From Actinomycetes bacterium (GTDB taxonomy: Bacteria > Actinomycetota > Thermoleophilia > Gaiellales > Gaiellaceae): a DNA stretch of 43,759 nt. This document shows, in pieces, positions 6,661 through 25,460 of the stretch. The position numbers and the translations under genes are program-made. The notes under the pieces are model-generated. The model saw only the letters and a program-made list of their open reading frames with translations. It did not search any database and was not told the DNA's origin. The stretch covers positions 1 through 43,759 of the forward strand of contig JAHEXT010000001.1 of NCBI GenBank assembly GCA_023251945.1, given 5' to 3'. Numbering within the stretch: position 1 is the first letter of the stretch; each line of letters opens with the position of its first letter.

Positions 6661-6715
6661 GAGGATCGAGTTGGCGGGAACCTTGCTCGCCGCGAGCGCA
6701 TCGAGATGAGGAACG

Positions 6716-6970
6716 CTATGTCCGGGCGAGCTTGGAGACGCACTTGCCGAACGCGTTCGCCTTGTTCTTGTTCGTCCCGTACTTGATCTTGAAGGCCACT
6801 GGATCCTTTGCCCGCTCGGCTTCACAAGCCTTGGCAGCGTTCTTCGTCGCGGCCTGGCTCGATTGAGGCTTGCCCTTGCCGACCGGTGGCGCCCCAAACC
6901 CCGTTGGAACCACGAGCGCGGCAAGAACAATAGCCGTGCCAACCGCGAGCTCAGCCCTTCGCTTCTTCAT
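6716..6970 (-). CDS. Small secreted Lys-rich protein with two Cys (hypothetical)
   Basis: 84 aa. N-terminal MKKRRAELAVGTAIVLAALVV signal/anchor. AAGGAG-type Shine-Dalgarno about 7 nt upstream of the ATG. Cys pair in KACEAERAKDP...AFGKCVSKLA. Confidence 0.6.
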   Translation of the reverse strand: MKKRRAELAVGTAIVLAALVVPTGFGAPPVGKGKPQSSQAATKNAAKACEAERAKDPVAFKIKYGTNKNKANAFGKCVSKLART

Positions 6971-7070
6971 CGTGTGCTCCTTTCAGTCCGTCGCTTCCTG
7001 TCACGCTAGGACGGGCAGGTGAGACAGCGATGAGAGTGCTCCCACTTCGTCTTGCGGCGGAGCGCAGGAA

Positions 7071-7718: not shown

Positions 7719-7721
7719 CCA

Positions 7722-7790
7722 TTAGAGCTCCCAACAGAATGGGCGACGATGCCGCGAGGCGACGGGCGGCCATCCTGTTGGAAGCTCTAA
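7722..7790. repeat. Long inverted repeat (about 21-nt arms, 19/21 complementary, about 27-nt spacer) in the divergent intergenic region
   Basis: TTAGAGCTCCCAACAGAATGG ... CCATCCTGTTGGAAGCTCTAA, read directly from the sequence. It lies between the PIG-L start (7718, minus) and the ligase-like gene start (7811, plus). Confidence 0.6.
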
Positions 7791-7810
7791 ACGCGTAACG
7801 TTCCGGCGCG

Positions 7811-9307: not shown

Positions 9308-9331
9308 CGACGGGCCGGGGCGACCGGCCTC

Positions 9332-10591: not shown

Positions 10592-10596
10592 CACCG

Positions 10597-11553: not shown

Positions 11554-12488
11554 GGAGCCTCGGACACGGAGACGGCGACCTCGGCCTTGTCCGCGCGCCC
11601 CCCGACCGAGACGTACAGCGTGTACGTGCCCGGCGTCTCAGGCGCGCGCAAAACGAGGACCTGCCTTCTCCCGGCTCCCCTCTCACCCGCGAAGAGCCAC
11701 CGGTACAGACGGGCGTCGGTGAAGACTCGCACCGAGAAGCGCTTCCCTGCGACGACCTCGATCCGATCGCGCGCCAGCTCCACGTACCGCACGCGCACGG
11801 GGACCTCCCGGGTCGAGCTCGACCTGTTCCCCGCCCGGTCGACCGCGCGCAGGCGAATCCCATACGTTCCCGGCCGCACGGATCGCTCCCCCACACGCCC
11901 GAACCACACGAGCCTGCCCTCGCGCGGGCGGAACCGGCTCAGGACCCTCCGCTTCCCGTCGACGAGCATCATCGCGCGGGCGAGCCCGTCGAGCTCGTAC
12001 CACGCGGTGACGCGATCCCGGCGACCGTCTCCGTCCGGCGAGAAGACGCGCGGGAAGAGGCGGACGAGCCTGATCCGCGGCCCGGTCGTATCGACCCGAA
12101 TCGGGTTCGGAAGGACGATCGTTCGGCCGTGCTCCTCGAGCTGGACGCGCGGGCGATACCGCCCCTCCGGAACGACGCGGCCGGCGTTGTCACGCCCGTC
12201 CCAGGTGTACGACACGCGCCCCGCCTCCTCGGCCAGGCCGCGGACGAGCGTCCGCACCGAGCGGCCGGCCGAGTCGAGGAGGTCGACCGTAAGCCTCCCC
12301 GGCTTGCGGAGCCGGAACGAGATCACCGCGACGTCGCGGGCGCACTCGCAAACCGGCGAGAACACCTTGTCCACCCGCGTTCCCGTGATCGGGCTGCGCT
12401 CGAGCTTGAGCCGCTCCGTGACCGCGAACGCCGCCGCGGTCGCACCGAGTAGTGCGACCACTAGCAGGACGTGTGGAAGCCGCGCCAA
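11550..12488 (-). CDS. Secreted or anchored protein with FlgD-Ig-like domains (hypothetical)
   Basis: Signal/anchor VLLVVALLGATAAAFAV. Motif YTWDGRDNAGRVVPEGRYRPRV is typical of FlgD-Ig-like modules. Confidence 0.6.
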   Translation of the reverse strand: MARLPHVLLVVALLGATAAAFAVTERLKLERSPITGTRVDKVFSPVCECARDVAVISFRLRKPGRLTVDLLDSAGRSVRTLVRGLAEEAGRVSYTWDGRDNAGRVVPEGRYRPRVQLEEHGRTIVLPNPIRVDTTGPRIRLVRLFPRVFSPDGDGRRDRVTAWYELDGLARAMMLVDGKRRVLSRFRPREGRLVWFGRVGERSVRPGTYGIRLRAVDRAGNRSSSTREVPVRVRYVELARDRIEVVAGKRFSVRVFTDARLYRWLFAGERGAGRRQVLVLRAPETPGTYTLYVSVGGRADKAEVAVSVSEAP

Positions 12489-12495
12489 ACGCGGC

Positions 12496-13167
12496 TCAGA
12501 TCGGGTCGAGCCCGCGCACGAGGACGAAGGGCTCCGCGTACTCGCACCCGCAGCTCGCCCCGTAGTACTCGGCCGCCGCCCGGATCGCCCGCTCGCTGCG
12601 CGGGTGTGGATACTCGCGGCGCTCGGTCTCGTAGCGCGCGAAGGCGGCGAGCTTCCTCTCGAGCGTCCCCGTGATGTCGACGAACCAGTTCGGGACGAAC
12701 CAGTTCACCGGCGCGGGCGTCCACTCCGTGCTCGAGGTCGGCGCGTACGTGAGGAGTCTGCGCACCCGCTGGCCGGGCGTGGGGCGCGTGGCCACCGCGA
12801 CCGAGTCGAAGAGCACCCGGTGGTCGCGGTTCACGTCCGGCTGGGCGGTGTAGACGACCTGCGGCGCGAGGTCCCGTACGTGTTCCTCGACGACCGTGTT
12901 CACGTCGACGTGCGCGAGCGTGTCCAGCCGCATGTCGGGGAGGTCGAGGTGGACATAGTCCGTCACGCCGAGCTCGGCTGCGGCACGCCGCGCTTCGTCC
13001 TCCTTTCGTGCCCGCGTCACGGTGTCGTCCGGGTACTGCGTCGAGCTCCCGTCCGTCACCACCACCACGCGAACGACGTCGCCACGGTCGGTGTGCGCGG
13101 CGATCGTGCCTCCCATGCCGAGCACCTCGTCGTCCGGGTGCGCGGCGATGACGAGCACGCGGGTCAT
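12496..13167 (-). CDS. PIG-L/LmbE-family deacetylase (second copy)
   Basis: Start refined to MTRVLVIAAHPDDEVLGMGGT (ATGA overlap with the upstream stop at 13164). PDVNRDHRV motif. The upstream 254 aa of the track ORF are an Arg-rich shadow. Confidence 0.85.
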   Translation of the reverse strand: MTRVLVIAAHPDDEVLGMGGTIAAHTDRGDVVRVVVVTDGSSTQYPDDTVTRARKEDEARRAAAELGVTDYVHLDLPDMRLDTLAHVDVNTVVEEHVRDLAPQVVYTAQPDVNRDHRVLFDSVAVATRPTPGQRVRRLLTYAPTSSTEWTPAPVNWFVPNWFVDITGTLERKLAAFARYETERREYPHPRSERAIRAAAEYYGASCGCEYAEPFVLVRGLDPI

Positions 13168-14846
13168 CCGAAACGCGCCCCCACGACGAGCGCGCCCGCA
13201 CCCGTATCGACCTCCTCGAGCAAGAGCCCACCCTCGCCGCAGGCCACGACCGGCCCCTCGGGCCGCTCGGCGACGATGGTCCCTGGGGGCGCGGCCGCGT
13301 CGAGCGCGACCGGCCGGGCACGCCAGATGACGACTTTCTCGTCTCCGAGGAACGTGAATGCGCCCGGGTACGGCCGCGTCTGCGCCCGCACCCAGTCGTG
13401 GAGGTACAGGGCGCGTGTCTCCCAGTCGATGATCCCGTCGGCGGGGGTCCGCCTCGGCCAGGAGCTGGCCCGGCGGGAATCCTGCGGGACGCGTGGTGCG
13501 CTCGTCGCGATGAGCTGAGGGACGACCTCTCGGATCAGCATGACGTGGGCCTCCGCGATGCGGTCGAAGAGGGTCGTCGCCGTGTCCTCGGGCGAGATGT
13601 CGATGATCGTTTGACCAACGATCGCCCCCGAGTCCGCGGTCGCGTCGACGATCTCGAAGAGCGTCACGCCCGTCCGCGCGAGCCCCGACAGGATCGCCCA
13701 CGGAATCGGAGCGCGTCCGCGGTGCCGAGGGAGGAGCGTAGGATGCATCCCGAAGACGCCCTCTTTCGCAAGCGCGATGAACGGATCGCGGACGAGCTGC
13801 GACCAGCCCACGACGAAGATCAGCTCCGGCTCGAGCACACGTATCGCCTCGAGCGTCGCGTCTGCGTTGACGTCCGTCGTCGTGACGAGCCGCGCGCCGT
13901 GCCGTTTCGCAACCGCGTCGAACGAGCACTGCCCCGAGCGGTTCGGGTCAATCGGCCCCGAGAGCGTGACGACACCCACGACGTCCGCGCCCACGTCCGC
14001 CGCCGCCTCCAGGCAGTCGCGGCCCACCGTGTCGAAGCTGACCCAGACCGTGCGCATCGCCGACGGGCGATGGTATCCGCTTAGCCGCGTGCGCCAACGC
14101 GCGGAGTTCGCGCGCAGGAAAGGCACGACGACGGCCAAGACGAGCTCGCTGTGGACGAACGCGCCAAGGTGTCCGAGGCCCGGGAGGACGACAGCCCGAC
14201 CGTCCGGAATCGCCGTAGCCGCTGCGGCGCAATGCTCAGCCTCGAGCTCCCCCGCGACGATCAGCGTCGGGGCCTCGATGCGCGGAAAGTGCGGCCATGG
14301 GCTCCAGCCAGCGAAGCATTCGAGCTCGCGCGCCACAACCTCTCGGTCCGTCTCGTCCGCGAGCTGCCGGATCAGCCACTCGGGTGCCGCTTCGCTGCCC
14401 AGGATCGCGCGAATCCCGCGCTCGCGCACGGCTCGTGCGGCCCTGCGCAACTCCTCCGGCTCTTCGTCGGGTGGGTCGACGCCCCCGGAGGCCACAAGCG
14501 CAGCAATGCGTTCTGGGTGTGCGGCGGCCATGGCGTATCCGACGTACGCACCATCGGAGTACCCCCAGAACGCGAAGCGCTCGATCCCGAGCTCGTCGAC
14601 GATCGCAGCAACATCGCCGGCGTAGTCGGCGACCGTGTAGCTGCTCCGGTCGGCAGGCGCGTCGCTCTGCCCATGACCGCGGTGGTCGAGGAGGACGACG
14701 ACGTGGAACTCGCTCAGCCCATCGACGTACCCCGCTTCGCGCCACATGCGCGAGTCGCCCGCGGCGCCCGTGTGCAACAGCAGCGGGAACCCGTCGCCCA
14801 CGACGTCGTAGGCAAGTCGCAAGCCTTGACGCTCGACGAACCTCAT
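13164..14846 (-). CDS. Fusion protein: N-terminal alpha/beta-hydrolase domain plus C-terminal formyltransferase-fold domain (Fmt/ArnA-N-like)
   Basis: One uninterrupted 560-aa frame. Hydrolase part: HRGHGQSD, GxSxG as WGYSDGA, GLGHLG. Transferase part: VVGWSQLV, GMHPTLLPRHRGRAPIPWA, ADSGAIVGQ, and a C-terminal Fmt-like beta-barrel segment (PYPGAFTF). Confidence 0.8.
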   Translation of the reverse strand: MRFVERQGLRLAYDVVGDGFPLLLHTGAAGDSRMWREAGYVDGLSEFHVVVLLDHRGHGQSDAPADRSSYTVADYAGDVAAIVDELGIERFAFWGYSDGAYVGYAMAAAHPERIAALVASGGVDPPDEEPEELRRAARAVRERGIRAILGSEAAPEWLIRQLADETDREVVARELECFAGWSPWPHFPRIEAPTLIVAGELEAEHCAAAATAIPDGRAVVLPGLGHLGAFVHSELVLAVVVPFLRANSARWRTRLSGYHRPSAMRTVWVSFDTVGRDCLEAAADVGADVVGVVTLSGPIDPNRSGQCSFDAVAKRHGARLVTTTDVNADATLEAIRVLEPELIFVVGWSQLVRDPFIALAKEGVFGMHPTLLPRHRGRAPIPWAILSGLARTGVTLFEIVDATADSGAIVGQTIIDISPEDTATTLFDRIAEAHVMLIREVVPQLIATSAPRVPQDSRRASSWPRRTPADGIIDWETRALYLHDWVRAQTRPYPGAFTFLGDEKVVIWRARPVALDAAAPPGTIVAERPEGPVVACGEGGLLLEEVDTGAGALVVGARFG

Positions 14847-14855
14847 CGAGCGCCT

Positions 14856-15758
14856 CTAGTCGACCGCGGAGGGAAGCCTGCCGTTCCGAGAGCGCTGGAA
14901 GCGAATCCAGCTGTGCCGGCCGATCCAGACGAGCAACGCGACCAGTCCGGCGGCGAGCGCGGCGACGACGATCGTTCCCGCACCTGGCACGTCGAGGAGC
15001 TTGATCCCTGCGAGGCCGAGCACGCCCGCAAGCAGGAGACGAAGTGCCTGCTCGGGAATCGAGAGCGTGAGACGACCGCCGATCAGGACGCCAGGGATGG
15101 AGCCGAGGAGGAGCCAGCCGAGGATGCCGAAGTCGACGTTCCCGGCCGCCCAGTGCGCAGCTCCCGCGACGTACAGGAGCACGGCGGCGTGGAAGATGTC
15201 GGTGCCGACGACCTTGTGGGCGCGCAGCGGAAAGACGACGAGGAGCGTCAGCCCGAAGAAGACGCCGCTCCCGACCGAAGTCAAGCCGACGATGAACCCG
15301 CCGAACACTCCGATCAGAACCGCGGCGACGCGATCTCGGTTCGTGAGCTTCCAGTCAGGATCGCCGATCGCACTCGTCCGGACGAGGCTCTTCGCCACCA
15401 ACCCGGCGGCGCCGAAGAGCAAGGCGGCGCCCAGCACCTGGCCCAGCACTGACTTGACGTCGTCGCCGTACCGCTCCGTCAGCTGCACGTTGACCCAGAC
15501 GCCGAGCAGCGACATCGGTATGGAGCCGATGAGCATCCACCCGGCGAGCCTCGCGCGCACGTTGCCCATGCGTCGGTGCTGAACCGCCCCGACCGTCTTG
15601 AAGGCTGCGCCGTGCGCGATGTCCGTGCCGATCGCCGTCGCAGGCGGAATGCCGAACAAGAAGACCAGGATCGGCGTCATCAGCGACCCGCCCCCCATGC
15701 CCGTCATTCCCACCAGGATGCCGGTCAGGAGACCTGCAAGGACGAACTCCCAGCTCAA
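14856..15758 (-). CDS. TauE/SafE (TSUP) family sulfite/organosulfonate anion exporter
   Basis: 300 aa with about 8 TM segments. GMTGMGGGSLMTPILV signature. TTG start preceded by GGAGG. Confidence 0.85.
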   Translation of the reverse strand: MSWEFVLAGLLTGILVGMTGMGGGSLMTPILVFLFGIPPATAIGTDIAHGAAFKTVGAVQHRRMGNVRARLAGWMLIGSIPMSLLGVWVNVQLTERYGDDVKSVLGQVLGAALLFGAAGLVAKSLVRTSAIGDPDWKLTNRDRVAAVLIGVFGGFIVGLTSVGSGVFFGLTLLVVFPLRAHKVVGTDIFHAAVLLYVAGAAHWAAGNVDFGILGWLLLGSIPGVLIGGRLTLSIPEQALRLLLAGVLGLAGIKLLDVPGAGTIVVAALAAGLVALLVWIGRHSWIRFQRSRNGRLPSAVD

Positions 15759-15816
15759 GCCCGCGACCTCCGGTCACGGCCTTGAGCTAGATGGCGGTGA
15801 GCTTGCCGCCGGCGAG

Positions 15817-16953
15817 TCATTTGCGATATGCGTGAATTAGAACTTGGGCTACTTCGGGACGCGTGAACTCCACCGGCGGGACGTCGCCTTCCCCGAGCAT
15901 CTCGCGCACCTTCGTTCCCGAGAGGTGGACGCGGTCCTCGGGCCCGTGGGGGCACGACTTCGTGCTCGCCATCGAACCGCACACGTTGCACCAGAACGTG
16001 TGCTCGAAGAACATCGGCTCGATGTCCAGCTCGTGCGGCTCGAACTCGTCGAAGATGAGCTGCGCGTCGTAGGTGCCGTAGTAGTCGCCGACACCTGCGT
16101 GGTCGCGGCCGACGATGAAGTGCGAGCAGCCGTAGTTCTTGCGGCAGATCGCGTGCCAGATCGCCTCGCGCGGGCCCGCGTAGCGCATCGCCGCCGGGAA
16201 CGCCGACAAGAGCACGCGGTCCTCCGGGTAGTACCCGTCGAGCAGCGTCCGGTAGCAGTCGACCCGGACGCCGACCGGCACGTCGTCCGCCTTCGTCTCG
16301 CCGACGAGCGGATGGACGAGGAGGCCGTCGACCGTCTCGAGCGCCACCTTGGTCAGGTACTCGTGCGCGCGGTGGATCGGATTCCGCGTCTGGAATCCGA
16401 CGACGCGCTTCCAGCCGCGCTCGGCGAAGATCCGGCGGGTCTCGGCCGGATCGAACGCGAGCTCGGCGAACGGCGGCTGCGGACGCTCGAAGACCGTGAA
16501 ACGGCCCGCGAGGTAGAGCTGCTTCTGGGCGTAGAGGCGGGCGACGCCGGGATGCGCGTCGTCAGTGGTCCGGAAGCAGAGCTCTGCCTCGCGCTCCTTG
16601 TCGTACTCGAACACCTCCTCGACCTCGAGTACTGCAAAGGTGCGGCCCTCCTGGTCGGTGAGCGTGACCCGCTCGCCTTTCGGCGCCTCCTCCACCGCGA
16701 GACACACGGGGAGCGCCCAGGGCAAGCCGTTCTCGAGGTGCATCTCCTCGATGACCCGCTCGTAGTCGGCGTGACTCATGAAGCCCTCGAGGGGGGAGAG
16801 CGCGCCGGAGGCGATCAGGTCGAGGTCGGAGAGCTCCCGCAAGGTCAGCGGGAAGCGCTCGAGTGCGTCGAGATCCTCGGGCCGCTCGCCCGTCCGGTCG
16901 ACGAGCGTGCCGCCGTGGGGCCGGATCAGCCGGTCGGTCGCGGCAACCGTCAC
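15817..16953 (-). CDS. sat: Sulfate adenylyltransferase (ATP sulfurylase)
   Basis: GFQTRNPIHRAHE and VGRDHAGVG motifs. GTG start refined to 16953 (GTGA overlap with the cysC stop). Confidence 0.9.
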   Translation of the reverse strand: MTVAATDRLIRPHGGTLVDRTGERPEDLDALERFPLTLRELSDLDLIASGALSPLEGFMSHADYERVIEEMHLENGLPWALPVCLAVEEAPKGERVTLTDQEGRTFAVLEVEEVFEYDKEREAELCFRTTDDAHPGVARLYAQKQLYLAGRFTVFERPQPPFAELAFDPAETRRIFAERGWKRVVGFQTRNPIHRAHEYLTKVALETVDGLLVHPLVGETKADDVPVGVRVDCYRTLLDGYYPEDRVLLSAFPAAMRYAGPREAIWHAICRKNYGCSHFIVGRDHAGVGDYYGTYDAQLIFDEFEPHELDIEPMFFEHTFWCNVCGSMASTKSCPHGPEDRVHLSGTKVREMLGEGDVPPVEFTRPEVAQVLIHAYRK

Positions 16954-17549
16954 GCCGCCACCTTCGCGGGCACGAGGCCCATCTCCTCGAGCTTGGCGAT
17001 CACCGCCGCTGCGGACTCCTCCGGCTCCACGCCCTCCGTGTCCACGACGATCTCGGGCGCCGGCGGCTCCTCGTAGGGATCGTCCACACCCGTGAACCCC
17101 TTGATCTCGCCCGCGAACGCCTTCGCGTAGAGGCCGTTGACGTCTCGCCGGGCACATTCCTCGACCGACGTCCTGACGTACACCTCGACGAACGGGCCGT
17201 GCTCCTCGACCAGCGCGCGTGCGTTCGCTCGCGCCTGCTCGTACGGGGAGATCGCCGCGACGATGACGGCGCCGCCGTGGCGCGTCACCCGCGAAGCGAC
17301 CCAGCCGAGGCGCTCGATGTGCGCGTCGCGGTCCTCCTTCGAGAAGCCGAGGCCCCTCGAGAGATGTGTCCGCACGGTGTCGCCGTCGAGGTACTCGACG
17401 ACGAGCCCGCGCCGGTCCAGCTCCGGGCCGACGTGATGCGCGATTGTCGTCTTCCCCGAGCCGGAAAGCCCCGTGAACCAGAGGGTGAAGCCGCCGCCGC
17501 GATCGGACTCCGATTCCGGATGCTCATGCGCGTAGATGTGCTGACTCAT
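16950..17549 (-). CDS. cysC: Adenylylsulfate (APS) kinase
   Basis: P-loop WFTGLSGSGKTTIA, LDGDTVR, FTGVDDPYE. Start refined to MSQHIYAH (ATGA overlap with the cysH stop). Confidence 0.9.
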   Translation of the reverse strand: MSQHIYAHEHPESESDRGGGFTLWFTGLSGSGKTTIAHHVGPELDRRGLVVEYLDGDTVRTHLSRGLGFSKEDRDAHIERLGWVASRVTRHGGAVIVAAISPYEQARANARALVEEHGPFVEVYVRTSVEECARRDVNGLYAKAFAGEIKGFTGVDDPYEEPPAPEIVVDTEGVEPEESAAAVIAKLEEMGLVPAKVAA

Positions 17550-18259
17550 GCCGTCCTTTCCAATGTCTTGTCTTCGTGGATGCCGCACTCCAGCTTGTCC
17601 GAGCCTGCCCAGCGCCCGGCCCGCTCCTCCTCGTCGGGGCTCGTGGGACGGGTGCACGGAATGCAGCCGATTGAACGGTAGCCAGCCTCGTGTAGCGGGT
17701 TGTAGGGGATCCCGTTGATCTCGATGTACGACCAAACGCGCTTCTCGTTCCAGTCGGCGAGCGGGTGGATCTTGAAGACCTGGTAGCGCTCCGACCACTG
17801 CAATTTTGGCGTTTTGGCGCGGCTCGGCGACTGGTCGCGGCGGATCCCCGAGATCCATGCGTCGTACGGTGCGAGCGCGCTCACGAGGGGCTCGACCTTG
17901 CGGATGTGGCAGCAGCGGTCGGGATCGCGCTCCCACAGATTCGGGCCCTCGGCGCGGTGCTGCTCGGCGATCGTCGGGATCTCCGGCCGGATCAGCTTCA
18001 GCGCGTAGCGCTCGACGAGGCGGTCGCGCGTCTCGTAGGACTCGCGGAAGAAGAGGTGCGTATCCAGCTCGACGGTGTCCATGCGCAGCCCGAGCTCCGC
18101 GACCATGTGAACGAGCACCGACGACTGCTTCTGCCAGGAGCAGGTGAGGCAGAGCCTCGGCCAGAAGAACCGGTGCGCCCAGGAGATGACCTCCTCGGCG
18201 CTCATGGCCTCGAAGTCGAGGTCAGGTAGCCGGGGAAGGCTCGACGCTCTGACGGCCAA
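17546..18259 (-). CDS. cysH: Assimilatory APS/PAPS reductase, Fe-S (APS-reductase) type
   Basis: RCCHIRKVEPL, SIGCIPCT and C-terminal ECGIH. The Cys-Cys...CxxC set is the [4Fe-4S] signature of APS-specific CysH. An alternative start lies at 18205. Confidence 0.85.
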   Translation of the reverse strand: MAVRASSLPRLPDLDFEAMSAEEVISWAHRFFWPRLCLTCSWQKQSSVLVHMVAELGLRMDTVELDTHLFFRESYETRDRLVERYALKLIRPEIPTIAEQHRAEGPNLWERDPDRCCHIRKVEPLVSALAPYDAWISGIRRDQSPSRAKTPKLQWSERYQVFKIHPLADWNEKRVWSYIEINGIPYNPLHEAGYRSIGCIPCTRPTSPDEEERAGRWAGSDKLECGIHEDKTLERTA

Positions 18260-19025
18260 GGAGCACCTCCTTCAACGTGTCGGCACGCAACCCGAGGCGA
18301 AGGGTCTCGAGCGCGATGACCTCGTCGGGCGGGATGTTCCCGAGGTTGACCTCCGGGCCGAAGTGCTTCACGAACCACGCCTGCGAATCCTTGGTCGGAG
18401 CCTCCCAGATCAGGTCGTGGAAGCTGATCGAGTGCTCGATCTCGTCCACGAGGCCCGTGCGGAGCTCCCCGGTCGGCCGGTAGATGCCCGCGGTGCCGCC
18501 CTCGCGGCCTTCGGCGATCACTTTCCAGGCCCCCGCAGCGAGCTCCTCGGTGATCCACTCGACCCACTGGTAGGGGGCGAAGACAACCTCCGCGTCCTTC
18601 GAGCCGACCTCGGAGAGGACGGCGAAGTCGCGGGCGAAATCGGCGATCAGCTCGAGCTTGCGCTCGCGCGGGATCTCGATCGTGCCGTCCGAGATCTCGA
18701 CGTGGGAGAAGCGGAAGTGCTCGAGCCAGCCCTTGAACTCGTCCACCTTGTCCTGGGCGTACACGGCCTCGAAAAGCGTCCCGCCGCACACGACCGGAGT
18801 CGCGAACGAGCGGTACAGCGCGATCTTCTTCTCCAGGTTGTTCGTAACGTAGCTCGTGCCCCAGCCGAGCTTGACGATGTCCACGTACTCGCCCGCGGTG
18901 TCGAAGAGGCCCTCGATCTCGCGCAGGTTGAGCCCCTTGTCGATGACGTGGGTGAGCCCGCGCGAGCGCGGCTTCCCCTCCCGGACGGGCACGTCGAGGA
19001 AGGAGTTCTGGTCAAAGGCGTGCAT
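18222..19025 (-). CDS. comA: (2R)-phospho-3-sulfolactate synthase
   Basis: Matches the ComA family from end to end as I recall it: RGLTHVIDKGL, DIVKLGWGTS, GGTLFE, VEISDG, VIAEGRE, EAP.K.Q, NLGNIPPDEVIALETLRLGLRADT. Start refined to MHAFDQ. Confidence 0.85.
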   Translation of the reverse strand: MHAFDQNSFLDVPVREGKPRSRGLTHVIDKGLNLREIEGLFDTAGEYVDIVKLGWGTSYVTNNLEKKIALYRSFATPVVCGGTLFEAVYAQDKVDEFKGWLEHFRFSHVEISDGTIEIPRERKLELIADFARDFAVLSEVGSKDAEVVFAPYQWVEWITEELAAGAWKVIAEGREGGTAGIYRPTGELRTGLVDEIEHSISFHDLIWEAPTKDSQAWFVKHFGPEVNLGNIPPDEVIALETLRLGLRADTLKEVLLGRQSVEPSPAT

Positions 19026-19599
19026 AGATGTCCTCCAGCTTCTTTCGGGCCCGCTCCTGAACATCGTGGTAGAGCGAGCTCCCGTGGGCGTCGATGCCGA
19101 CCGTGAGCGGGCCGAAGTCCTTCACGCGGAACTTCCAGAGGCACTCGGGCATGAGCTCCTCCCAGGCGACCTCCTCGATCTCCTCGATCTGGGTCGTCTC
19201 CAGCGCGGCCGCTCCGCCGACGATGGCGAAGTAGACCATCCCGAGACGCCGCATCGGCTCGATCGCCTCGTCCGGGAAGCCGCCCTTGCCGCAGATCGCC
19301 CGGACGCCGTACTTCGAGCCGAGCCCCTCCGTGAAGCGCACCATGCGGGCGCTCGTCGTCGTCCCGATGCAGATCTTCTCGTAGCGGCCCGGCCCGAGCT
19401 TGCGGACCCCGGGCGCGGTGTGGAGGAGGAAGGCGCCGCTGAGATCCATCGGCGGCTCAATCCCCTGGTCGAAGATCCGGATCTGCGTCCGGTCGCGGAT
19501 CCCGATGATGTGTCCCTGAACGACGACCTCGTCGCCCGCGCGCAGCTTCACGATCTCCGCAGGGTCCGTGATCGGGAACGTAACCTCGTGGGTCGCCAT
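19012..19599 (-). CDS. Fe-S type hydro-lyase beta subunit (class I fumarate hydratase/tartrate dehydratase beta, Fumerase_C)
   Basis: 195 aa starting MATHEVTFPI. Segments LHTAPG, IGTTTSARM, ICGKGG. Its ATG overlaps the alpha-subunit stop (TGATG). Confidence 0.85.
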   Translation of the reverse strand: MATHEVTFPITDPAEIVKLRAGDEVVVQGHIIGIRDRTQIRIFDQGIEPPMDLSGAFLLHTAPGVRKLGPGRYEKICIGTTTSARMVRFTEGLGSKYGVRAICGKGGFPDEAIEPMRRLGMVYFAIVGGAAALETTQIEEIEEVAWEELMPECLWKFRVKDFGPLTVGIDAHGSSLYHDVQERARKKLEDIYARL

Positions 19600-20495
19600 C
19601 ACGCGTCTCTCTCGTACTCGACGGTGCCGTCTGCCGCGACGTGAGCCGAGGCGCGGCGCGCAGCCCAGCACTGGTAGTTGACCGCGACCGGGTTCAGGGT
19701 CATGTGCGTGTCGGCGTGCTCGACGTGGACGGAGAGAACCGTGACGTCGCCGCCGAGCCCCATGGGCCCGACGCCGGTCTCGTTCAGGAGCTCGTAGAGC
19801 TCGTCCTCGAGCTGCGCCACCAGCGGATCGGGATTGCGCGTGGCGACCGGCCGTGCGATCGCCTCCTTCGCGAGGTGCATCGCGTAGTCGGCGCTCCCGC
19901 CAATGCCCACTCCGACGATCCCGGGCGGACACGGCTTCCCGCCCGCGCCGACGATCGACTCGAGGACGAACTTCTTGATCCCCGTGACGCCGTCGGCGGG
20001 AACGCACATCTTCAGGAAGCTCATGTTCTCGGAGCCCGAGCCTTTCGGCACGCACTTCACGTCGAGGCCGTCCCAGTCGGGCACGAAGTCCCAGTGGACG
20101 ATCGGGACGCGGAAGCCGACGTTCGGGCCCGTGTTCTCCCGGGTCAGCGTGTGGACCGTGTTCGAGCGCAGCGGGTGCTCGACGGTCGCGCGCTCGGTAC
20201 CCGCCTTCAGCGCTTCGTAGATACGCGCCGGGTGGAGCGGGAAGCCCTCCCCGACGCGGCAGTAGTAGACGGGGATCCCCGTGTCCTGGCAGACGAGGTT
20301 CCGCTCATCCTCCGCCACGTTCACGTTGCGGAGGATGGTCTGGAGAACACGCTGGCCGGTCACCGAGGTCTCCTTCTCTGCTGCGCCGGCGAGAGCGTCC
20401 CTCAAGTCCTGCGGGATGTCCTTCAGTGCCCAGACATAGAGATACGCGGCGGCGTCCTCGACAGAGACGGAGAGATCGGTCGCTATCGTGATCAC
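19599..20495 (-). CDS. Fe-S type hydro-lyase alpha subunit (class I fumarate hydratase/tartrate dehydratase alpha)
   Basis: The three cluster cysteines sit in family context: CQDTGIPVYY, KCVPKGSGSENMS, NYQCW. GTG start refined to 20495 (GTGA overlap with the upstream stop). Confidence 0.85.
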   Translation of the reverse strand: MITIATDLSVSVEDAAAYLYVWALKDIPQDLRDALAGAAEKETSVTGQRVLQTILRNVNVAEDERNLVCQDTGIPVYYCRVGEGFPLHPARIYEALKAGTERATVEHPLRSNTVHTLTRENTGPNVGFRVPIVHWDFVPDWDGLDVKCVPKGSGSENMSFLKMCVPADGVTGIKKFVLESIVGAGGKPCPPGIVGVGIGGSADYAMHLAKEAIARPVATRNPDPLVAQLEDELYELLNETGVGPMGLGGDVTVLSVHVEHADTHMTLNPVAVNYQCWAARRASAHVAADGTVEYERDA

Positions 20496-21742
20496 GTCGT
20501 CGCCCTCTCCGCCGCCGCCTTCCCTGCACGACGGCCGAACACGGTGCACTCCAACAGCGAATTGCCCATCATCCGGTTCCTACCGTGCGTCCCGCCCGCG
20601 ATCTCGCCGCAGGCGAAGACACCCTCGAGCGTCGTCTCCGCACGCTCGTCGATCACGAGCCCGCCGTTCTGGTAGTGGAGGACGGGGTACGTGAAGATCG
20701 GCTCGGCGAGCGGATCGATGCCGGCCCCGCGGTAGCGTCGCAGCATGTAGGGGAGCGAGATCTCGGCGTCCTCAGGGGAGATCCGGACCGTGTCGAGCCG
20801 GACCGCGGGGCGGCCGTCGGGCGTGAGGACGCCCTTCCCCTTGTCCACCTCGTCGAAGATCGCCTGCGAGACGGCGTCGCGCGGCCCGAGCGAGTCCGTG
20901 AACTCCTCGCCGTCGGCGTTGAGGAGCACGGCGCCGTAGGCGCGAGTCGTTTCGGGGATCGAGTAGCCCTGCATCGTGTCCGGCCACGCGCCTCCGTTCG
21001 GGTGGTACTGGAGCGCGTCGAGGTCCCGGGCCTCCGCGCCCGCCTCCAGTGCGATGCGGGTGACCTCGCCCGTCGCGTTCGGATGGTTCGTCGAGAGCTC
21101 GCCGCGTGTCTCCGCCTCCGCGTAGCAGCGCCCGCCGGCCGCCAGTACGATCGCCCGCGCGAAGACCTCGACCGCCTCCTCGTCCTTGCGACGGAACGTC
21201 GCGGTCCAGCCGGACTCCGCCGGGCGGAGCTCGACGAGAGCATGATGCGGGAGCTCCGTTCCCGGACCCGCCTCGTACGCATCGCGGAGCGCCTTCGTGA
21301 TGGCGTGCCCGGTGCGGTCGCCGACCTGGAGCAGTCGCTTCCGGCTCGCTCCGCCGCAGCGCGCGAGCCGATAGCCCCCATTCGACCGCGTGAACTCGAC
21401 GCCGAGCTCTTCCAGCCAGTGAATCGCGGACGGCGCCTCGCTCGTGAGCACCTCCGCGAGGCGCGGGTTGGCCGTGTCGTGCGAGCTCCGCATGACGTCC
21501 TCGGCATGGATCTCGGGCGAGTCGTCGTCGCCGAACGCCGCCTGGATGCCTCCCTGCGCCTTCGCGGAGTTGCACGCCTGCAGGGTCGTCTTCGTCGCCA
21601 GCCCGACCCGGGCTCCGGCCCGCTCGGCGGAGACGGCGGCAGCCAGGCCGGACGCGCCGCTGCCGATGACGAGCACGTCGAAGGAGACGCCCGTGCGCAC
21701 GGGCCGCATGCTAGCGGAATTCCTTATCTCTGTCATCATCAT
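20492..21742 (-). CDS. Short FAD-dependent oxidoreductase of the FrdA/SdhA/NadB flavoprotein family (FAD_binding_2), lacking the C-terminal helical domain
   Basis: DVLVIGSGASGLAAA (GxGxxG), AKAQGGIQA, YHPNG, GVFACGEIAGGTHGRNRMMGNSLLECTVFG. The start may instead be Met-12 (21709), which has an AAGGA upstream. Confidence 0.8.
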   Translation of the reverse strand: MMMTEIRNSASMRPVRTGVSFDVLVIGSGASGLAAAVSAERAGARVGLATKTTLQACNSAKAQGGIQAAFGDDDSPEIHAEDVMRSSHDTANPRLAEVLTSEAPSAIHWLEELGVEFTRSNGGYRLARCGGASRKRLLQVGDRTGHAITKALRDAYEAGPGTELPHHALVELRPAESGWTATFRRKDEEAVEVFARAIVLAAGGRCYAEAETRGELSTNHPNATGEVTRIALEAGAEARDLDALQYHPNGGAWPDTMQGYSIPETTRAYGAVLLNADGEEFTDSLGPRDAVSQAIFDEVDKGKGVLTPDGRPAVRLDTVRISPEDAEISLPYMLRRYRGAGIDPLAEPIFTYPVLHYQNGGLVIDERAETTLEGVFACGEIAGGTHGRNRMMGNSLLECTVFGRRAGKAAAERATT

Positions 21743-21796: not shown

Positions 21797-22186
21797 GTGG
21801 CCACTCTCGCCGAGATCGTCAAGCCGAACTTCATCACCGTCGCCCCGGAGGACACTCTCGGCGAAGTTGCGGAGAAGATGAACCAGCAGAACGTCGGCGC
21901 CGTGATCGTGAGGGACTACGGCCGGCTCATCGGGATCCTCACCGAGCGCGACATGCTCCGGGCCATGGCCTCCCGCGTGCACACGAGCGACGCCCGAGTG
22001 CGCCAGTGGATGACGGCCGACCCGATCACCGCGTCACCGGAGATGCCGCTCGACGACGCTGCGCAGGTGATGCTGGACCACGGTTTCCGACACCTTCCCG
22101 TGGTCGACGGCTCGACCGTGCTCGGCGTCGTCAGCCTCCGCCGCGTCCTCGGCGGCCGCCGCCAGCCGGCCCCCGAGGCGGCGTAA
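21797..22186 (+). CDS. Stand-alone CBS-pair (Bateman module) protein
   Basis: 129 aa from the GTG at 21797. Two CBS repeats (ITVAPEDTLGEVAEKMNQQNVGAVIV...GILTERD and ITASPEMPLDDAAQVMLDHGFRHLPVV...GVVSLRR). Confidence 0.8.
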   Translation: MATLAEIVKPNFITVAPEDTLGEVAEKMNQQNVGAVIVRDYGRLIGILTERDMLRAMASRVHTSDARVRQWMTADPITASPEMPLDDAAQVMLDHGFRHLPVVDGSTVLGVVSLRRVLGGRRQPAPEAA

Positions 22187-23607: not shown

Positions 23608-24567
23608 TCACCAGATCGAGCGGAGCAGCTCCTCGGCATCCTCGGCTGTGACCGGCCGCGGATTTGCACGCGCGCCCGGGCGTACCTCCACCTCGGCTGC
23701 GAGGGACGGAAGGTCTTCCTCCGAGACCCCGAAATCGCGGAGACGCTCGAAGCCGCCGAGCCGGGCGAGCTCCACCACCCGCAGCGCTGGATCGTCCGTG
23801 TCGAGCGCCTCGCCGAGCCGCGCTATCGCCTCGGGAACGACGGGCTCGTTGAAGCGGAGCGCCGGCGGGAGGGTCAGGGCGTTCATGGCCCCGTGCGGAA
23901 GGCCGTACCGGCCGCCGAGGACCTGCGCCAGCGCGTGCGCGAGGTACAGGCCGCGGTCGGCGAGCGCCTTGCCTCCGTGCATGGCTCCCTCGAGTAGCCG
24001 AGTTCGCGCCTCCAAGTCGTGCCCGTCCGCGACCACCGCCGGCAGATTGCCTCCGATCAACCGCGCTCCGACGACCGCGTCCTCGCATTCGCCCGCGTAG
24101 AGGGCTTCGGCGCAGTGGGCGAGCGCATTGAGCGCTGTGCCCGCGCTCTCGCCCGGCGGAAGATCCAGCGTCAGGCGCGGCTCGTACACGATCGCGACCG
24201 TCCGGGCACCGGAGCCGCCGCTCTTCACCCGGCGCTCCTCGTCGCGGACGCCGAAGTAGGGCGTCCATTCGGCTCCCGCATACGTGGTCGGCACCACGAC
24301 GAGCGGGAGGCCCGTCGCCGCGGACACCGCCTTGGCCGTGTCGATCGCGCTGCCTCCCCCGAGGCCGACCAGTGAGTCGGCCTCCCGCGATGCAGCTACG
24401 GCCTCCGACACGGTCTCGAGAGGCGAGTGCCGTCTCACCCCTGAGAAGCGCGCGGCGACGGGGAGCTCGAGGTCACGGAATCGCTCGCTCGCCACGAGCA
24501 GCGGGCGCGCGCTCCCGAGCTCGGACAGGAGTCCTCGGAGCTCGCCGAGGCCCCAGCGGACGATCAC
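23608..24567 (-). CDS. Iron-containing alcohol dehydrogenase-family oxidoreductase (maleylacetate reductase-like)
   Basis: GLGGGSAIDTAK; His-rich metal site ALNALAHCAEAL and HALAQVLGGRYGLPHGAMNAL. GTG start at 24567 in a GTGA overlap with the lysR stop. Confidence 0.8.
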   Translation of the reverse strand: MIVRWGLGELRGLLSELGSARPLLVASERFRDLELPVAARFSGVRRHSPLETVSEAVAASREADSLVGLGGGSAIDTAKAVSAATGLPLVVVPTTYAGAEWTPYFGVRDEERRVKSGGSGARTVAIVYEPRLTLDLPPGESAGTALNALAHCAEALYAGECEDAVVGARLIGGNLPAVVADGHDLEARTRLLEGAMHGGKALADRGLYLAHALAQVLGGRYGLPHGAMNALTLPPALRFNEPVVPEAIARLGEALDTDDPALRVVELARLGGFERLRDFGVSEEDLPSLAAEVEVRPGARANPRPVTAEDAEELLRSIW

Positions 24568-25460
24568 GGCGTCAGCCGCTCGCGGGCGAACCCGACGAAT
24601 GCGTCCGCCACGCGCGTGCGCGCCCTTCCCGCGGCAGACGCGAGCGAGATCTCCCGAGTCGCCTCCAGCCCCTGGACACGGGCCTCGGCCAGCGTCCCGG
24701 CTTCCAGATCGGACTCGACCGCCGTCCGGGAGATGAACGTCACGCCGTACCCGGCCTCGACCGCGCGCCGGACGGACTCCTGGAGACCGAGCTCGAGGCG
24801 GACGTCGAGATCGCGCAGCCGCACTCCGCGGCGCCGGAGCGCGTCCTCGACGATCTGGCGCACGCCCGCTCCCTCCTGCATCAGAATCAGAGATTCCCCC
24901 CGCAGCTCGTCGAGGGTCACCGTGCGACCCGAGAACGGGTGGCCCGACGGGCACGCGAGAATGACCTCGTCGGAGAAGAACGGCTCGAAGCGGACACCTC
25001 TGTGCCGCCGAGACGCGCCGACGATCCCGAGCTCGAGCTCCCGCGCTGCGACCCGCTCGATGACGGTGTGCGTGTCCGACACCGTGAGGAAGACGCGAAC
25101 GCCCGCGTTCTCGCGCTGGAACTCGCCGAGGAGGACCGGGACGACGATCGCCGCTGGGCCCGTCGACGCGCCGAGCACGAGATCGCCGGCGAGCTCGCCC
25201 TCCCCGCTCAGCGCGACGTCCGAGACGATCTGATCCTCCAGGGCCAGGAGCCGCTGCGCGCCCCGGTAGAGACGCCAGCCGGACTCGGTGGGCTCGACTC
25301 GGCGGCCGGAGCGATCAAGAAGCTGCGTCCCGAGCCGCTTCTCGAGCGCGCGTACCTGGAGTGACACCGCCGGCTGCGTTACGCCGAGGCGCTCGGCCGC
25401 CTGCGAGAAGCTCCGGCGCTCGACAACGGCGCAGAAGGCGGCAAGTTGCCGCGTATCCAT
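24564..25460 (-). CDS. LysR-family transcriptional regulator
   Basis: N-terminal wHTH FSQAAERLGVTQPAVSLQVRALE followed by a LysR substrate-binding domain. Confidence 0.9.
   Translation of the reverse strand: MDTRQLAAFCAVVERRSFSQAAERLGVTQPAVSLQVRALEKRLGTQLLDRSGRRVEPTESGWRLYRGAQRLLALEDQIVSDVALSGEGELAGDLVLGASTGPAAIVVPVLLGEFQRENAGVRVFLTVSDTHTVIERVAARELELGIVGASRRHRGVRFEPFFSDEVILACPSGHPFSGRTVTLDELRGESLILMQEGAGVRQIVEDALRRRGVRLRDLDVRLELGLQESVRRAVEAGYGVTFISRTAVESDLEAGTLAEARVQGLEATREISLASAAGRARTRVADAFVGFARERLTP

Follow-up and report, generated by a model that had tools for sequence, protein, structure and literature searches.

A pair of adjacent genes in a 43,759-nt stretch of DNA (the window) from a soil-dwelling actinobacterium of the Gaiellaceae probably encodes the alpha and beta subunits of a sulfolactate dehydratase/sulfoacrylate hydratase with a [4Fe-4S] class-I fumarase fold. 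The predicted reaction is (2R)-3-sulfolactate <-> 3-sulfoacrylate + H2O, the two organic substrates being sulfonate isosteres of malate and fumarate. A sulfolactate/sulfoacrylate hydro-lyase had already been put forward in a preliminary description of the window, and comparative evidence now supports it: a conserved locus with ComA, orthologs in a SuyAB context, and a clade separate from reference fumarases.

Gene organization

The pair lies on the minus strand between a flavoprotein gene and comA, followed by sulfate-activation genes and a predicted exporter:

24564..25460, minus strand: LysR-family regulator; upstream position conserved
23608..24567, minus strand: Fe-dependent alcohol dehydrogenase; translationally coupled to lysR in relatives
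20492..21742, minus strand: truncated FrdA/NadB-like flavoprotein, 416 aa (Pfam FAD_binding_2, 9.9e-66)
19599..20495, minus strand: fumA, alpha subunit of split class-I Fe-S hydro-lyase, 298 aa (Pfam Fumerase, 4.8e-91)
19012..19599, minus strand: fumB, beta subunit, 195 aa (Pfam Fumerase_C, 8e-26)
18222..19025, minus strand: comA, ComA-family phosphosulfolactate synthase, 267 aa (Pfam ComA, 1.4e-85)
17546..18259, minus strand: cysH, CysH-type (P)APS reductase (NF002537, 244.9 against a cut-off of 154)
16950..17549, minus strand: cysC, APS kinase (Pfam APS_kinase, 6.6e-59; TIGR00455, 198 against 138.7)
15817..16956, minus strand: sat, ATP sulfurylase (NF003166, 529 against a cut-off of 387)
14856..15758, minus strand: tauE, predicted TauE/SafE-family anion exporter (Pfam TauE, 4.1e-44)

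Both subunits are whole ORFs, in agreement with the preliminary description, and its placement of a fumarate-reductase-like flavoprotein and ComA on either side holds in family matches and coordinates alike. The fumA start is a GTG within a GTGA overlap on the flavoprotein stop, the fumB ATG and the fumA stop have one base in common (TGATG), and comA begins with an ATG at 19025 while the fumB stop codon runs to 19012, which bears out the 14-nt overlap first reported. All three overlaps recur in relatives, where that between fumB and comA spans 14–17 nt. A promoter/terminator scan found no terminator-like site inside the operon and nothing above chance expectation. The start of sat is uncertain; its longest ORF extends to 17157, and orthologs have 378–380 aa.

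Conservation among Gaiellaceae

We sampled 80 species-level Gaiellaceae relatives and restricted counts to informative loci. The comA gene directly follows fumB in 72 of 74 species loci, and in 74 of 76 the gene directly ahead of fumA encodes the truncated flavoprotein; two loci alone, L061 and L073, depart from these linkages. The core of flavoprotein, fumA, fumB, and comA is kept even in loci that lack sat, cysC, and cysH, and tauE, the final conserved gene of the unit, then comes directly after comA. Across species, identity is 82–92% for alpha, the least variable product of the operon, and about 80–94% for beta. Linkage of comA to fumAB was seen in Gaiellaceae only.

Orthologs beside sulfolactate sulfo-lyase genes

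In the two exceptional loci and in a third Gaiellaceae genome (L170), an ortholog with 81–86% identity in alpha and 85–90% in beta occupies a cluster ordered SdhB-SdhA-SdhC/D-x-SuyA-SuyB-Aldedh-FumA-FumB(-TauE). Nearby are TauE, a SorA-like sulfite dehydrogenase, and a PF03601 transporter, of the family that PGAP labels a putative sulfate exporter beside suyAB in Paracoccus versutus; L061 also carries a 73%-identical copy of the LysR regulator beside the cluster. The suyAB genes consist of a 93–95 aa SAF ORF overlapping a 382–384 aa GD_AH ORF (L061, L073, L170, L171, and L175), a split form unique to SuyAB within its superfamily (PMC6336799). The SuyB-like protein is 58% identical to suyB of P. 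versutus, which has a suyA-suyB-sulfate-exporter layout, and no more than 42% identical to other UxaA-family proteins; JGI annotates its homologs as (2R)-sulfolactate sulfo-lyase beta, and the copy in Rubrobacter xylanophilus (76% identity) adjoins GH31/PfkB genes. Judged by ORF architecture and identity, this neighbor is a true SuyB and a predicted sulfolactate sulfo-lyase.

With alpha as query, direct scans of proteins and genomes were filled by Gaiellaceae matches (at least 82% identity); outgroups came from a search of 50% representatives and from a metagenome scan with representative P0127 as its seed. SuyAB, TauE, a complex-II-like enzyme, and FumAB occur together in Actinomadura welshii and on Methylobacterium radiotolerans plasmid pMRAD01, along with a 2-hydroxyacid dehydrogenase, GntR, and an Ldh_2 protein whose best match is L-sulfolactate dehydrogenase. 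Because the enzyme is plasmid-borne in Methylobacterium and Rhodococcus, it is not a housekeeping fumarase there. TPP enzymes beside the clusters of L172 and L175 were considered as sulfonate markers and set aside, as their scores are far below the Xsc cut-off.

Other members adjoin a complex-II-like operon, and their flanks contain no sulfonate marker (L173, L093/L095, and Rhodococcus RHA1 plasmid pRHL1, which has a SuyB homolog ~22 kb away). The L173 member has SdhBACD neighbors in housekeeping-gene surroundings, and that of L093 has SdhBACD with respiratory genes. The clade may, ancestrally or generally, be one of true fumarases.

Neighbor-joining trees of alpha, beta, and the concatenated subunits place the window enzyme in a clade apart from the MjFH/AfFH type. 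The anchors were two reference fumarases only, the characterized MjFH (Methanocaldococcus jannaschii) and AfFH (A. fulgidus, a PDB entry named fumarase); with these two, the tight clustering with fumarases that in the preliminary description would point to an ordinary enzyme was not seen. The SuyAB-context enzymes of Gaiellaceae, Actinomadura, and Methylobacterium fall in the same single clade as the window enzyme, and within it Gaiellaceae sequences from ComA and SuyAB contexts are intermixed.

Family profiles and active site

Both subunits belong to the class-I Fe-S hydro-lyases. Alpha scores 305 bits with PF05681 (cut-off 25), spanning 266 of 270 profile positions, and 315.8 with TIGR00722 (cut-off 100.65); beta scores 91 bits with PF05683 (cut-off 22.2) and 147.1 with TIGR00723, barely above the cut-off of 145.15. 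Only alpha passes a curated fumarate hydratase equivalog (NF004885, 308.4 against 276). Beta clears TIGR00723 alone and falls below every equivalog cut-off for fumarase or tartrate dehydratase (NF004708, 145.2 against 269; NF006253, 108.6 against 244; NF005310, 93.4 against 238), so that the two subunits do not jointly qualify as a curated fumarate hydratase. The TtdA and TtdB equivalogs were missed as well (NF006084, 214 against 365; NF006082, 135 against 264). The pair matches only PF05681/PF05683 and not the Lyase_1 (class-II fumarase) fold of XcbC; no Lyase_1 gene was found in the operon or in the relatives' loci, and tblastn with an E. coli FumC query found no class-II fumarase in the window and 175 loci, a result uninformative for the genomes as a whole.

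The preliminary description had assigned the three cluster cysteines to CQDTG, KCVPKG, and YQCW. All three strings are present and the first and last do hold ligands; the second ligand, however, is the Cys of GGKPCPPG, the counterpart of Cys182 in MjFH and Cys252 in LmFH (L. major fumarase), and not that of KCVPKG, where MjFH has Ala-Phe. The ligands in CQDTG, KPCPP, and YQCW thus align with MjFH Cys60/182/269 and LmFH Cys133/252/346. The KGSGS that follows KCVP (PKGSGSENMS in the window) is the proximal loop KGXGS of S-malate-specific fumarases, the L-tartrate dehydratases having AGGGC.

In MjFH numbering, the equivalents of Cys60/Gln61/Asp62/Arg102/Gly147/Cys182/His257/Cys269 in alpha and of Arg32/Thr80/Thr81/Arg84/Lys104 in beta are conserved, the latter including the catalytic Thr and the Arg/Lys clamps. 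In this alignment the Asp62–His257 and Thr80 acid/base residues and all substrate clamps are kept, and the ten S-malate-contacting residues of LmFH/MjFH are all identical in the window enzyme. The active-site comparison suggested in the preliminary description therefore confirmed conservation of the contact residues and, as all of them equal those of MjFH/LmFH, did not discriminate between substrates; by sequence, no first-shell residue calls for a sulfonate. According to cited work, active-site residues are the same even between fumarase and L-tartrate dehydratase.

The clade has a signature in beta, GIRDRTQ/LHTAP/GTTTS with a one-residue deletion ahead of MPECLW. Its eight clade-specific positions (T30G, A35T, C61T, G62A, P79T, L146E, G150 lost, and L158F) lie around Arg32, which clamps the C4-carboxylate, and around the catalytic Thr80; the C61T position is Ala in MjFH itself.

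Proposed pathway

The window ComA belongs to its family by PF02679 (287 bits) and, among the ComA proteins compared, is closest to B. subtilis YitD (1U83, 216 bits; M. jannaschii ComA 1QWG, 156 bits); its TIGR03849 score of 246.5 is below the 280 cut-off. A ComB-type phosphatase had been described as unaccounted for, and it stayed so: no PF04029 protein was found among scanned window proteins or among called genes within +-10 kb in L001–L004. A 180-aa ORF lies between the flavoprotein gene and fumA in some relatives' loci. It was considered as the missing phosphatase and rejected, since it gave only a sub-threshold ankyrin hint and no family match and is absent from the window.

The flavoprotein (orthologs, 413–417 aa) has no Succ_DH_flav_C domain in Pfam and is far under the cut-off of all NCBIfam equivalogs. 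Aligned with FrdA, it keeps His232/Arg287/His355/Arg390 and has Pro for Thr244 and Asn for His44; the His for covalent FAD is absent. We regard it, from these sequence features, as a candidate sulfoacrylate reductase. The covalent-FAD His is also missing from the complex-II-like SdhA in SuyAB clusters, and the mode of FAD binding was dropped as an argument for pathway direction.

In the scheme that we propose, Sat, CysC, and CysH, identified at family level, would reduce sulfate to sulfite, and ComA, likewise assigned by family, would join sulfite and PEP to phosphosulfolactate. Some phosphatase, the gene for which is missing from the operon, would release (R)-sulfolactate, and the hydro-lyase would dehydrate this to sulfoacrylate as fumarase does L-malate. 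The C2-OH would sit on the unique Fe, with Asp/His as acid and the beta-subunit Thr as base, and the sulfonate would take the place of the C4-carboxylate, held by alpha-Arg, beta-Arg, and alpha-Gln. Since CIP priorities swap, (R)-sulfolactate and L-(S)-malate have equal spatial configuration, and a fumarase-type, S-malate-specific KGXGS site therefore fits the ComA product. The truncated flavoprotein, with FAD bound noncovalently, would reduce sulfoacrylate to 3-sulfopropionate, and TauE would export the product. The window hydro-lyase may retain fumarase activity.

The SuyAB contexts would run the reverse route, from 3-sulfopropionate through sulfoacrylate and sulfolactate to pyruvate and sulfite; a minority of Gaiellaceae and some other bacteria pair enzymes of this clade with a complex-II-like enzyme and SuyAB, which is consistent with this. 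A broader proposal, which we make tentatively and which may well not hold, is a bacterial sulfo-analogue of the succinate–fumarate–malate segment, formed by hydro-lyases of this clade and flavoproteins of the fumarate reductase family. In most Gaiellaceae it would be biosynthetic (sulfate + PEP -> phosphosulfolactate -> sulfolactate -> sulfoacrylate -> 3-sulfopropionate -> export), and it would be catabolic where clade members lie in SuyAB clusters (Gaiellaceae, Actinomadura, and Methylobacterium plasmids). Sulfoacrylate is a real bacterial metabolite made from phosphosulfolactate (PMC9457059), and conversion of 3-sulfopropionate through sulfoacrylate to sulfolactate has been proposed, with no genes attached (PMC11489063). 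The searchable literature yielded no gene assignment for sulfoacrylate hydration or the sulfolactate–sulfoacrylate step.

Alternative explanations

In the main rival reading, the enzyme is an ordinary fumarate hydratase of the TCA cycle or a reductive branch that came by chance to lie in a sulfolactate transcription unit; its flavoprotein neighbor would then serve as soluble fumarate reductase or as aspartate oxidase, and comA, the cys genes, and tauE would form an unrelated module. The MjFH/LmFH-like first shell and KGXGS loop, the fumarate hydratase equivalog passed by alpha, the high cross-species identity with alpha varying least in the operon, and clade relatives beside SdhBACD among housekeeping (L173) or respiratory (L093) genes all agree with this, and a fumarase and a fumarate reductase flavoprotein are a natural pair in fumarate metabolism. 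We nevertheless think it unlikely. Across the 80 species, comA or SuyAB, both rare sulfolactate enzymes, adjoins the ortholog in all informative loci; clade members are plasmid-borne in Rhodococcus and, with SuyAB/TauE, in Methylobacterium; the clade stands apart from MjFH/AfFH, and beta is under every equivalog cut-off. A LysR-controlled operon with sulfate activation would also be an odd home for a housekeeping TCA enzyme.

Direct conversion of (2R)-phospho-3-sulfolactate to sulfoacrylate with loss of phosphate, by a nonhomologous analogue of Xanthobacter XcbC, would account for the absence of ComB within +-10 kb and would suit the translational coupling of fumB to comA; XcbC shows that such a conversion exists (PMC9457059). 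We hold this to be quite improbable, because Asp and the Gly of KGXGS, which keep a free C2-OH against the cluster, are unchanged with no hint of a phosphate pocket, the ortholog also neighbors SuyAB, which acts on unphosphorylated sulfolactate, and expelling phosphate needs no Lewis-acid Fe-S cluster. Dehydration of another 2-hydroxy acid with no sulfonate tie, such as tartrate, citramalate/mesaconate, or another substituted malate, would be compatible with the acceptance of S,S-tartrate and mesaconate by class-I fumarases (Kronen et al., as summarized in citing work), with active-site sequences that cannot tell fumarase from L-tartrate dehydratase, and with canonical-type plasmid matches annotated ttdB. 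It appears highly improbable, given a KGSGS loop of fumarase type rather than AGGGC, only 39% identity to E. coli ttdB, and conserved neighbors that give no pointer to tartrate or mesaconate metabolism.

Comparison with known systems

MjFH (PDB 7XKY; EC 4.2.1.2) shares fold and subunit split with the sulfolactate dehydratase proposed here (alpha, 257 bits to 7XKY_A; beta, 104 bits), which differs in its separate clade, its beta substitutions, and its setting, which is a sulfonate operon and not central metabolism. E. coli TtdAB (EC 4.2.1.32) has the same family, split architecture, and active-site residues, but TtdA carries the AGGGC loop where the window has KGSGS, and beta is about 39% identical to the E. 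coli protein. XcbC, from coenzyme M synthesis in Xanthobacter autotrophicus, also acts after a ComA-type synthase and also yields sulfoacrylate (PMC9457059). In this case, too, a fumarase-like enzyme has come to act on a sulfonate isostere, and the resemblance is functional only: its fold is unrelated (class-II/Lyase_1, aspartase/fumarase superfamily), it has no Fe-S cluster, and it eliminates phosphate, not water. The window locus has nothing equivalent to XcbD and XcbE, which carry out the later steps (cysteine addition, PLP chemistry).

In B. subtilis (yitCD/yitBA-yisZ), a ComA homolog has dedicated sat/cysC/cysH paralogs feeding sulfite, as in the window. Bacillus, however, has ComB (YitC) and ends at sulfolactate, whereas the window has no ComB and adds an Fe-S hydro-lyase, a truncated flavoprotein, and TauE. 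The route proposed for Roseovarius nubinhibens (J. Mayer thesis, cited in PMC11489063) ends at SuyAB, and the clusters of SdhBACD-like enzyme, FumAB, SuyAB, and TauE would supply the enzyme types that it needs; we found no genes assigned to its steps before SuyAB in the searchable literature. Compared with this route, the hydratase step in the window operon would be reversed and would serve biosynthesis, starting from ComA.

Metabolism of sulfoquinovose/DHPS and of homotaurine yields 3-sulfopropionate, and a 2024 paper and a 2026 review describe its degradation route as unresolved. If our reading of the hydro-lyase is right, there are gene candidates in cultivable strains for this gap in the organosulfur cycle, phosphosulfolactate synthase feeds a new pathway in Gaiellaceae, which are abundant among soil-metagenome matches, and a fumarase has been recruited to a sulfonate isostere a second, independent time after XcbC. 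Should the sulfo-analogue hold as well, it would be a third fate of the ComA product, besides ComB/ComC and XcbC, and the SuyAB clusters would provide the missing 3-sulfopropionate degradation genes. The current labels of these genes are "fumarate hydratase" and "succinate dehydrogenase", and TCA counts in metabolic reconstructions may be wrong.

Organization of the operon

Eight consecutive genes occupy the minus strand of the window (G+C about 69%) from 21742 down to 14856, joined by overlaps or tiny gaps, and were identified by family match. The closest relatives of the window are metagenome-assembled Gaiellaceae genomes (Thermoleophilia, Actinomycetota).

Genes of the unit (coordinates, strand, family match)
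20492-21742, minus, fumarate-reductase / L-aspartate-oxidase family flavoprotein, 416 aa
19599-20495, minus, class-I Fe-S hydro-lyase alpha subunit (fumA)
19012-19599, minus, class-I Fe-S hydro-lyase beta subunit (fumB)
18222-19025, minus, ComA-family phosphosulfolactate synthase
17546-18259, minus, CysH
16950-17549, minus, CysC
15817-~16956, minus, Sat (upper coordinate approximate)
14856-15758, minus, TauE/SafE-type exporter

The flavoprotein and alpha genes overlap in GTGA, the alpha and beta genes overlap in TGATG, and the junction of beta and comA has the 14-nt overlap claimed in the preliminary description. A sequence scan of low power found no terminator-like sites within the unit. Divergent from the operon is a CBS-domain gene (21820-22186, plus strand), which tblastn detects in about 20 loci and for which L001-L004 among the relatives also have a gene call upstream. 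Upstream of the operon lie lysR and an Fe-alcohol dehydrogenase gene (23608-25460, minus strand), which are translationally coupled and kept in most Gaiellaceae loci. These genes may serve regulation or aldehyde/alcohol sulfonate chemistry. A cell-envelope glycan biosynthesis region adjoins the operon. At 13164-14846 (minus strand) lies an ORF of 560 aa in which an alpha/beta-hydrolase domain is joined to an ArnA-like formyltransferase; relatives have, after tauE, a stand-alone formyltransferase of 296-297 aa and then a PIG-L deacetylase.

Conservation of the neighborhood in Gaiellaceae

We scanned for relatives with one genome per species, which returned 276, and examined the best 80. Alpha in these 80 is 82-92% identical to that of the window, and the genomes are labelled almost all Gaiellaceae, Gaiellales, Thermoleophilia or unclassified Actinomycetes (one bin is Vicinamibacterales). 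Among loci with enough flank in these best 80 of 276 species, comA is directly 3′ of fumB in 72 of 74, and the truncated flavoprotein is 5′ of fumA in 74 of 76. The truncation is real, since flavoprotein length is consistently 413-417 aa in relatives. Eleven loci lack sat/cysC/cysH, and tauE then directly follows comA in 10 of them, so that the stable core is flavoprotein-fumA-fumB-comA-tauE. Gaiellaceae assemblies that have the operon and are complete or nearly so include OY970285.1 (2.40 Mb), CAWFIP010000002.1 (2.27 Mb) and CAVQXR010000001.1 (2.57 Mb). The Vicinamibacterales contig (L024, CAWIBS010000009.1) has this Gaiellaceae operon, its FumA being 92% identical, and is probably mis-binned; its comA and flavoprotein fall below the 50%-coverage filter, possibly because of fragmentation by assembly indels. 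Some Gaiellaceae operons have an extra ORF of ~180 aa between flavoprotein and fumA (L003 6081-6623; equivalent gap in L004, L006, L007, L010, L011, L023 and L045), which is absent from the window and gave no family match, a sub-threshold ankyrin hint alone.

The ComA of the window most resembles B. subtilis YitD, whose operons include dedicated sat/cysC/cysH paralogs and produce the sulfolactate found in Bacillus spores. No ComB (2-phosphosulfolactate phosphatase), the step that the preliminary description had noted as unaccounted for, was called within ±10 kb in relatives L001-L004. Linkage to comA was seen in Gaiellaceae alone, comA being absent from all 87 non-Gaiellaceae loci scanned.

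Association with sulfolactate sulfo-lyase

The most informative loci are two exceptions, L061 and L073 (CAVUTE010000001.1), which alone among the best 80 of 276 species have neither comA nor the truncated flavoprotein. Their ortholog is 83-86% (alpha) and 85-90% (beta) identical to that of the window, in the order GntR / SdhB-SdhA-SdhC(-SdhD)-x-SuyA-SuyB-aldehyde dehydrogenase-FumA-FumB, followed in L061 by TauE and LysR. L170, a third genome from Gaiellaceae, repeats this order, and near its cluster are TauE, a 2-hydroxyacid dehydrogenase, a SorA-like sulfite dehydrogenase and a transporter of PF03601, the family that PGAP labels putative sulfate exporter beside suyAB in Paracoccus versutus.

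The SuyB-like protein has the sequence characteristics expected of a genuine sulfolactate sulfo-lyase. SuyA and SuyB in these loci have the split small/large-subunit architecture that is unique to SuyAB within the UxaA/GarD superfamily (PMC6336799), and JGI labels SuyB homologs (2R)-sulfolactate sulfo-lyase beta. Plasmid-borne SuyB homologs are separated by a sharp gap into one group at least 58% identical and all others at most 42%; the former includes P. versutus, where suyA-suyB and then a sulfate exporter form the classical suyABZ layout. SuyB and SdhA occur together on at least 15 further contigs among the matches common to both searches.

A recurrent cluster, SdhB-SdhA-SdhC/D-(ORF of ~125-140 aa)-SuyA-SuyB-(aldehyde dehydrogenase)-FumA-FumB-TauE, accompanied by GntR and Ldh_2/2-hydroxyacid dehydrogenases, is a candidate pathway from 3-sulfopropionate through sulfolactate to pyruvate and sulfite.

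Loci with the recurrent Sdh-SuyAB-FumAB cluster
L061, Gaiellaceae, 3159-12213
L073, Gaiellaceae, 3344-11495
L170, Gaiellaceae, 9301-17567
L171, Actinomadura welshii, 5847-18589
L175, Methylobacterium radiotolerans plasmid pMRAD01, 8354-24552 (NC_010510.1 about 229-246 kb)

In A. welshii the order is SuyA-SuyB-2-hydroxyacid dehydrogenase-Ldh_2-SdhB-SdhA-SdhC-x-ABC transporter (NMT1 type)-GntR, with TauE-FumB-FumA on the opposite strand; on pMRAD01 it is binding protein-SdhB-SdhC-SdhD-FumA-FumB-SdhA-TPP enzyme-binding protein-TauE-SuyA-SuyB-DctA-oxidoreductase-Ldh-GntR. The top NCBIfam match of the Ldh_2 proteins is L-sulfolactate dehydrogenase, below its cut-off.

The flavoproteins of both settings lack the His for covalent FAD. 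That of the window has Asn instead (ACNSAKAQGG), with Pro at FrdA Thr244, and retains the two His/Arg pairs that bind dicarboxylate. The complex-II-like SdhA (RSGCTRMVQGG; L073 4062-5783, L061 3931-5649, L101 5182-7059) also lacks it, which is unusual in a membrane-anchored complex II.

Phylogeny and active site

Alpha, beta and concatenated trees all unite the Gaiellaceae, Actinomadura and Methylobacterium enzymes in one clade. The phylogeny, which the preliminary description had called for, leaves outside it the MjFH/AfFH-type enzymes (the Methanocaldococcus jannaschii fumarase and an Archaeoglobus fulgidus protein, our two reference anchors). Within Gaiellaceae, sequences from the ComA and SuyAB contexts interleave in the trees, so one ortholog serves both settings. 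Two positions in alpha and eight in beta are diagnostic of the clade (MjFH numbering). In beta, T30G and A35T flank Arg32, which clamps the C4 carboxylate, the place that the sulfonate group of sulfolactate would occupy; P79T adjoins catalytic Thr80, and the others are C61T, G62A, L146E, loss of Gly150 and L158F.

Three cluster ligands are present, as described earlier from CQDTG, KCVPKG and YQCW, of which the first and last are right. The Cys of KCVPKG is not a ligand, its Lys-Cys aligning with Ala-Phe in MjFH; the second ligand is the Cys of GGKPCPPG, aligned with MjFH Cys182 and Cys252 of the Leishmania major fumarase, and the ligands thus sit in CQDTG, KPCPP and YQCW. By alignment, all S-malate contacts of the fumarases from L. 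major and M. jannaschii are kept in alpha (Gln61, Asp62, Arg102, Gly147, His257) and in beta (Arg32, Thr80, Thr81, Arg84, Lys104). The proposed active-site comparison therefore gave no discrimination, all first-shell residues being identical to fumarase: they indicate a fumarase-fold enzyme for a malate-like 2-hydroxy acid, nothing finer. Cited work on the family assigns fumarase and tartrate dehydratase identical active sites and opposite stereospecificities.

By every sequence criterion the enzyme belongs to the class-I Fe-S hydro-lyases, and its proximal loop, KGSGS of fumarase type rather than the AGGGC of L-tartrate dehydratases, indicates that it is not a tartrate dehydratase. Alpha scores above the NCBIfam fumarate-hydratase equivalog cut-off (308 vs 276); beta is below every equivalog cut-off (145 vs 269 and lower) and barely reaches the generic domain model TIGR00723 (147.1 vs 145.15). 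Assignment to fumarate hydratase proper is consequently mixed, the alpha equivalog and loop motif agreeing with it and the beta equivalog and clustering relative to the MjFH/AfFH references disagreeing. (2R)-3-Sulfolactate has the spatial arrangement of L-(S)-malate, since CH2SO3 ranks above COOH under the CIP rules, and a fumarase-type site therefore fits the product of ComA.

Proposed role and alternatives

The ortholog is beside ComA or SuyAB in every one of the 80 species sampled (comA scored in 74 loci). ComA builds the sulfolactate skeleton and SuyAB cleaves it, two rare and mechanistically unrelated sulfolactate enzymes, and beyond Gaiellaceae the clade is again found with SuyAB/TauE in two lineages, one plasmid-borne. 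The simplest account, because of these associations, and one we consider probable, is that the hydro-lyase would interconvert sulfolactate and sulfoacrylate, as proposed in the preliminary description, and that partner flavoproteins would interconvert sulfoacrylate and 3-sulfopropionate. An ordinary fumarase is unlikely, even though a fumarase with a fumarate-reductase-family flavoprotein is exactly what genuine fumarate metabolism looks like, and some clade members have Sdh neighbors and no sulfonate marker nearby. In L173 (3.3-Mb contig), FumA-FumB-SdhBACD lies among dnaN, recF, folD and dnaE and resembles a housekeeping module; in L093/L095, FumAB is accompanied by an Sdh and HdrD-like genes; and Rhodococcus jostii pRHL1 has transporter-SdhBACD-FumAB, with a SuyB homolog ~22 kb off on the same plasmid. 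Because of such members, true fumarase activity, alongside a complex II without the covalent-FAD His, may be the ancestral function of the clade, which some members may retain, alone or as one of two activities; a plasmid-borne FumAB copy cannot be the housekeeping fumarase.

Biological sulfoacrylate is known from Xanthobacter XcbC, an enzyme of bacterial coenzyme M synthesis that removes phosphate from phosphosulfolactate (PMC9457059) and has a class-II fold, in contrast to the class-I Fe-S fold here. Direct phosphate elimination from phosphosulfolactate by the hydro-lyase seems quite improbable, and another hydroxy-acid substrate is more improbable still.

In the sulfolactate/sulfoacrylate reading, sulfate would be converted to sulfite, and sulfite and PEP to phosphosulfolactate; a putative phosphatase would yield (R)-sulfolactate, which the hydro-lyase would convert to sulfoacrylate and the flavoprotein then to 3-sulfopropionate for export. 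Substrates, direction, product and the exporter's cargo are what we infer here, beside the observed gene families, operon structure, conservation, alternative contexts and separate clade. Degradation of 3-sulfopropionate through sulfoacrylate and sulfolactate is a thesis proposal, as cited in PMC11489063, and a 2026 review still calls this degradation unclear; our searches of the searchable full-text literature turned up no gene to which sulfoacrylate hydration is assigned. Practical interest is high, the hypothesis being directly testable because cultivable strains (M. radiotolerans JCM 2831, A. welshii, R. jostii RHA1) carry related clusters.

Other SuyAB loci

Three further Gaiellaceae loci carry SuyAB without FumAB. 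L169 (9271-17195) has SdhBACD-x-SuyAB, then gamma-glutamyltranspeptidase and an AcnX-family Fe-S hydratase, a possible non-orthologous stand-in for the hydratase step. L087 and L088 (8600-15400), with 2-hydroxyacid dehydrogenase, SuyAB, an NMT1/SsuA-type ABC transporter, OsmC and rhodanese, look like a separate sulfolactate-uptake/desulfonation cluster. In Rubrobacter xylanophilus DSM 9941 (L085 5929-16694; CP000386.1 about 2.60-2.62 Mb), SuyB is 76% identical to Gaiellaceae SuyB and SuyAB neighbors a GH31 glycosidase, two PfkB kinases, PFK and GntR, a sulfoglycolysis-like setting that looks like an undescribed sulfoquinovose-degradation cluster.
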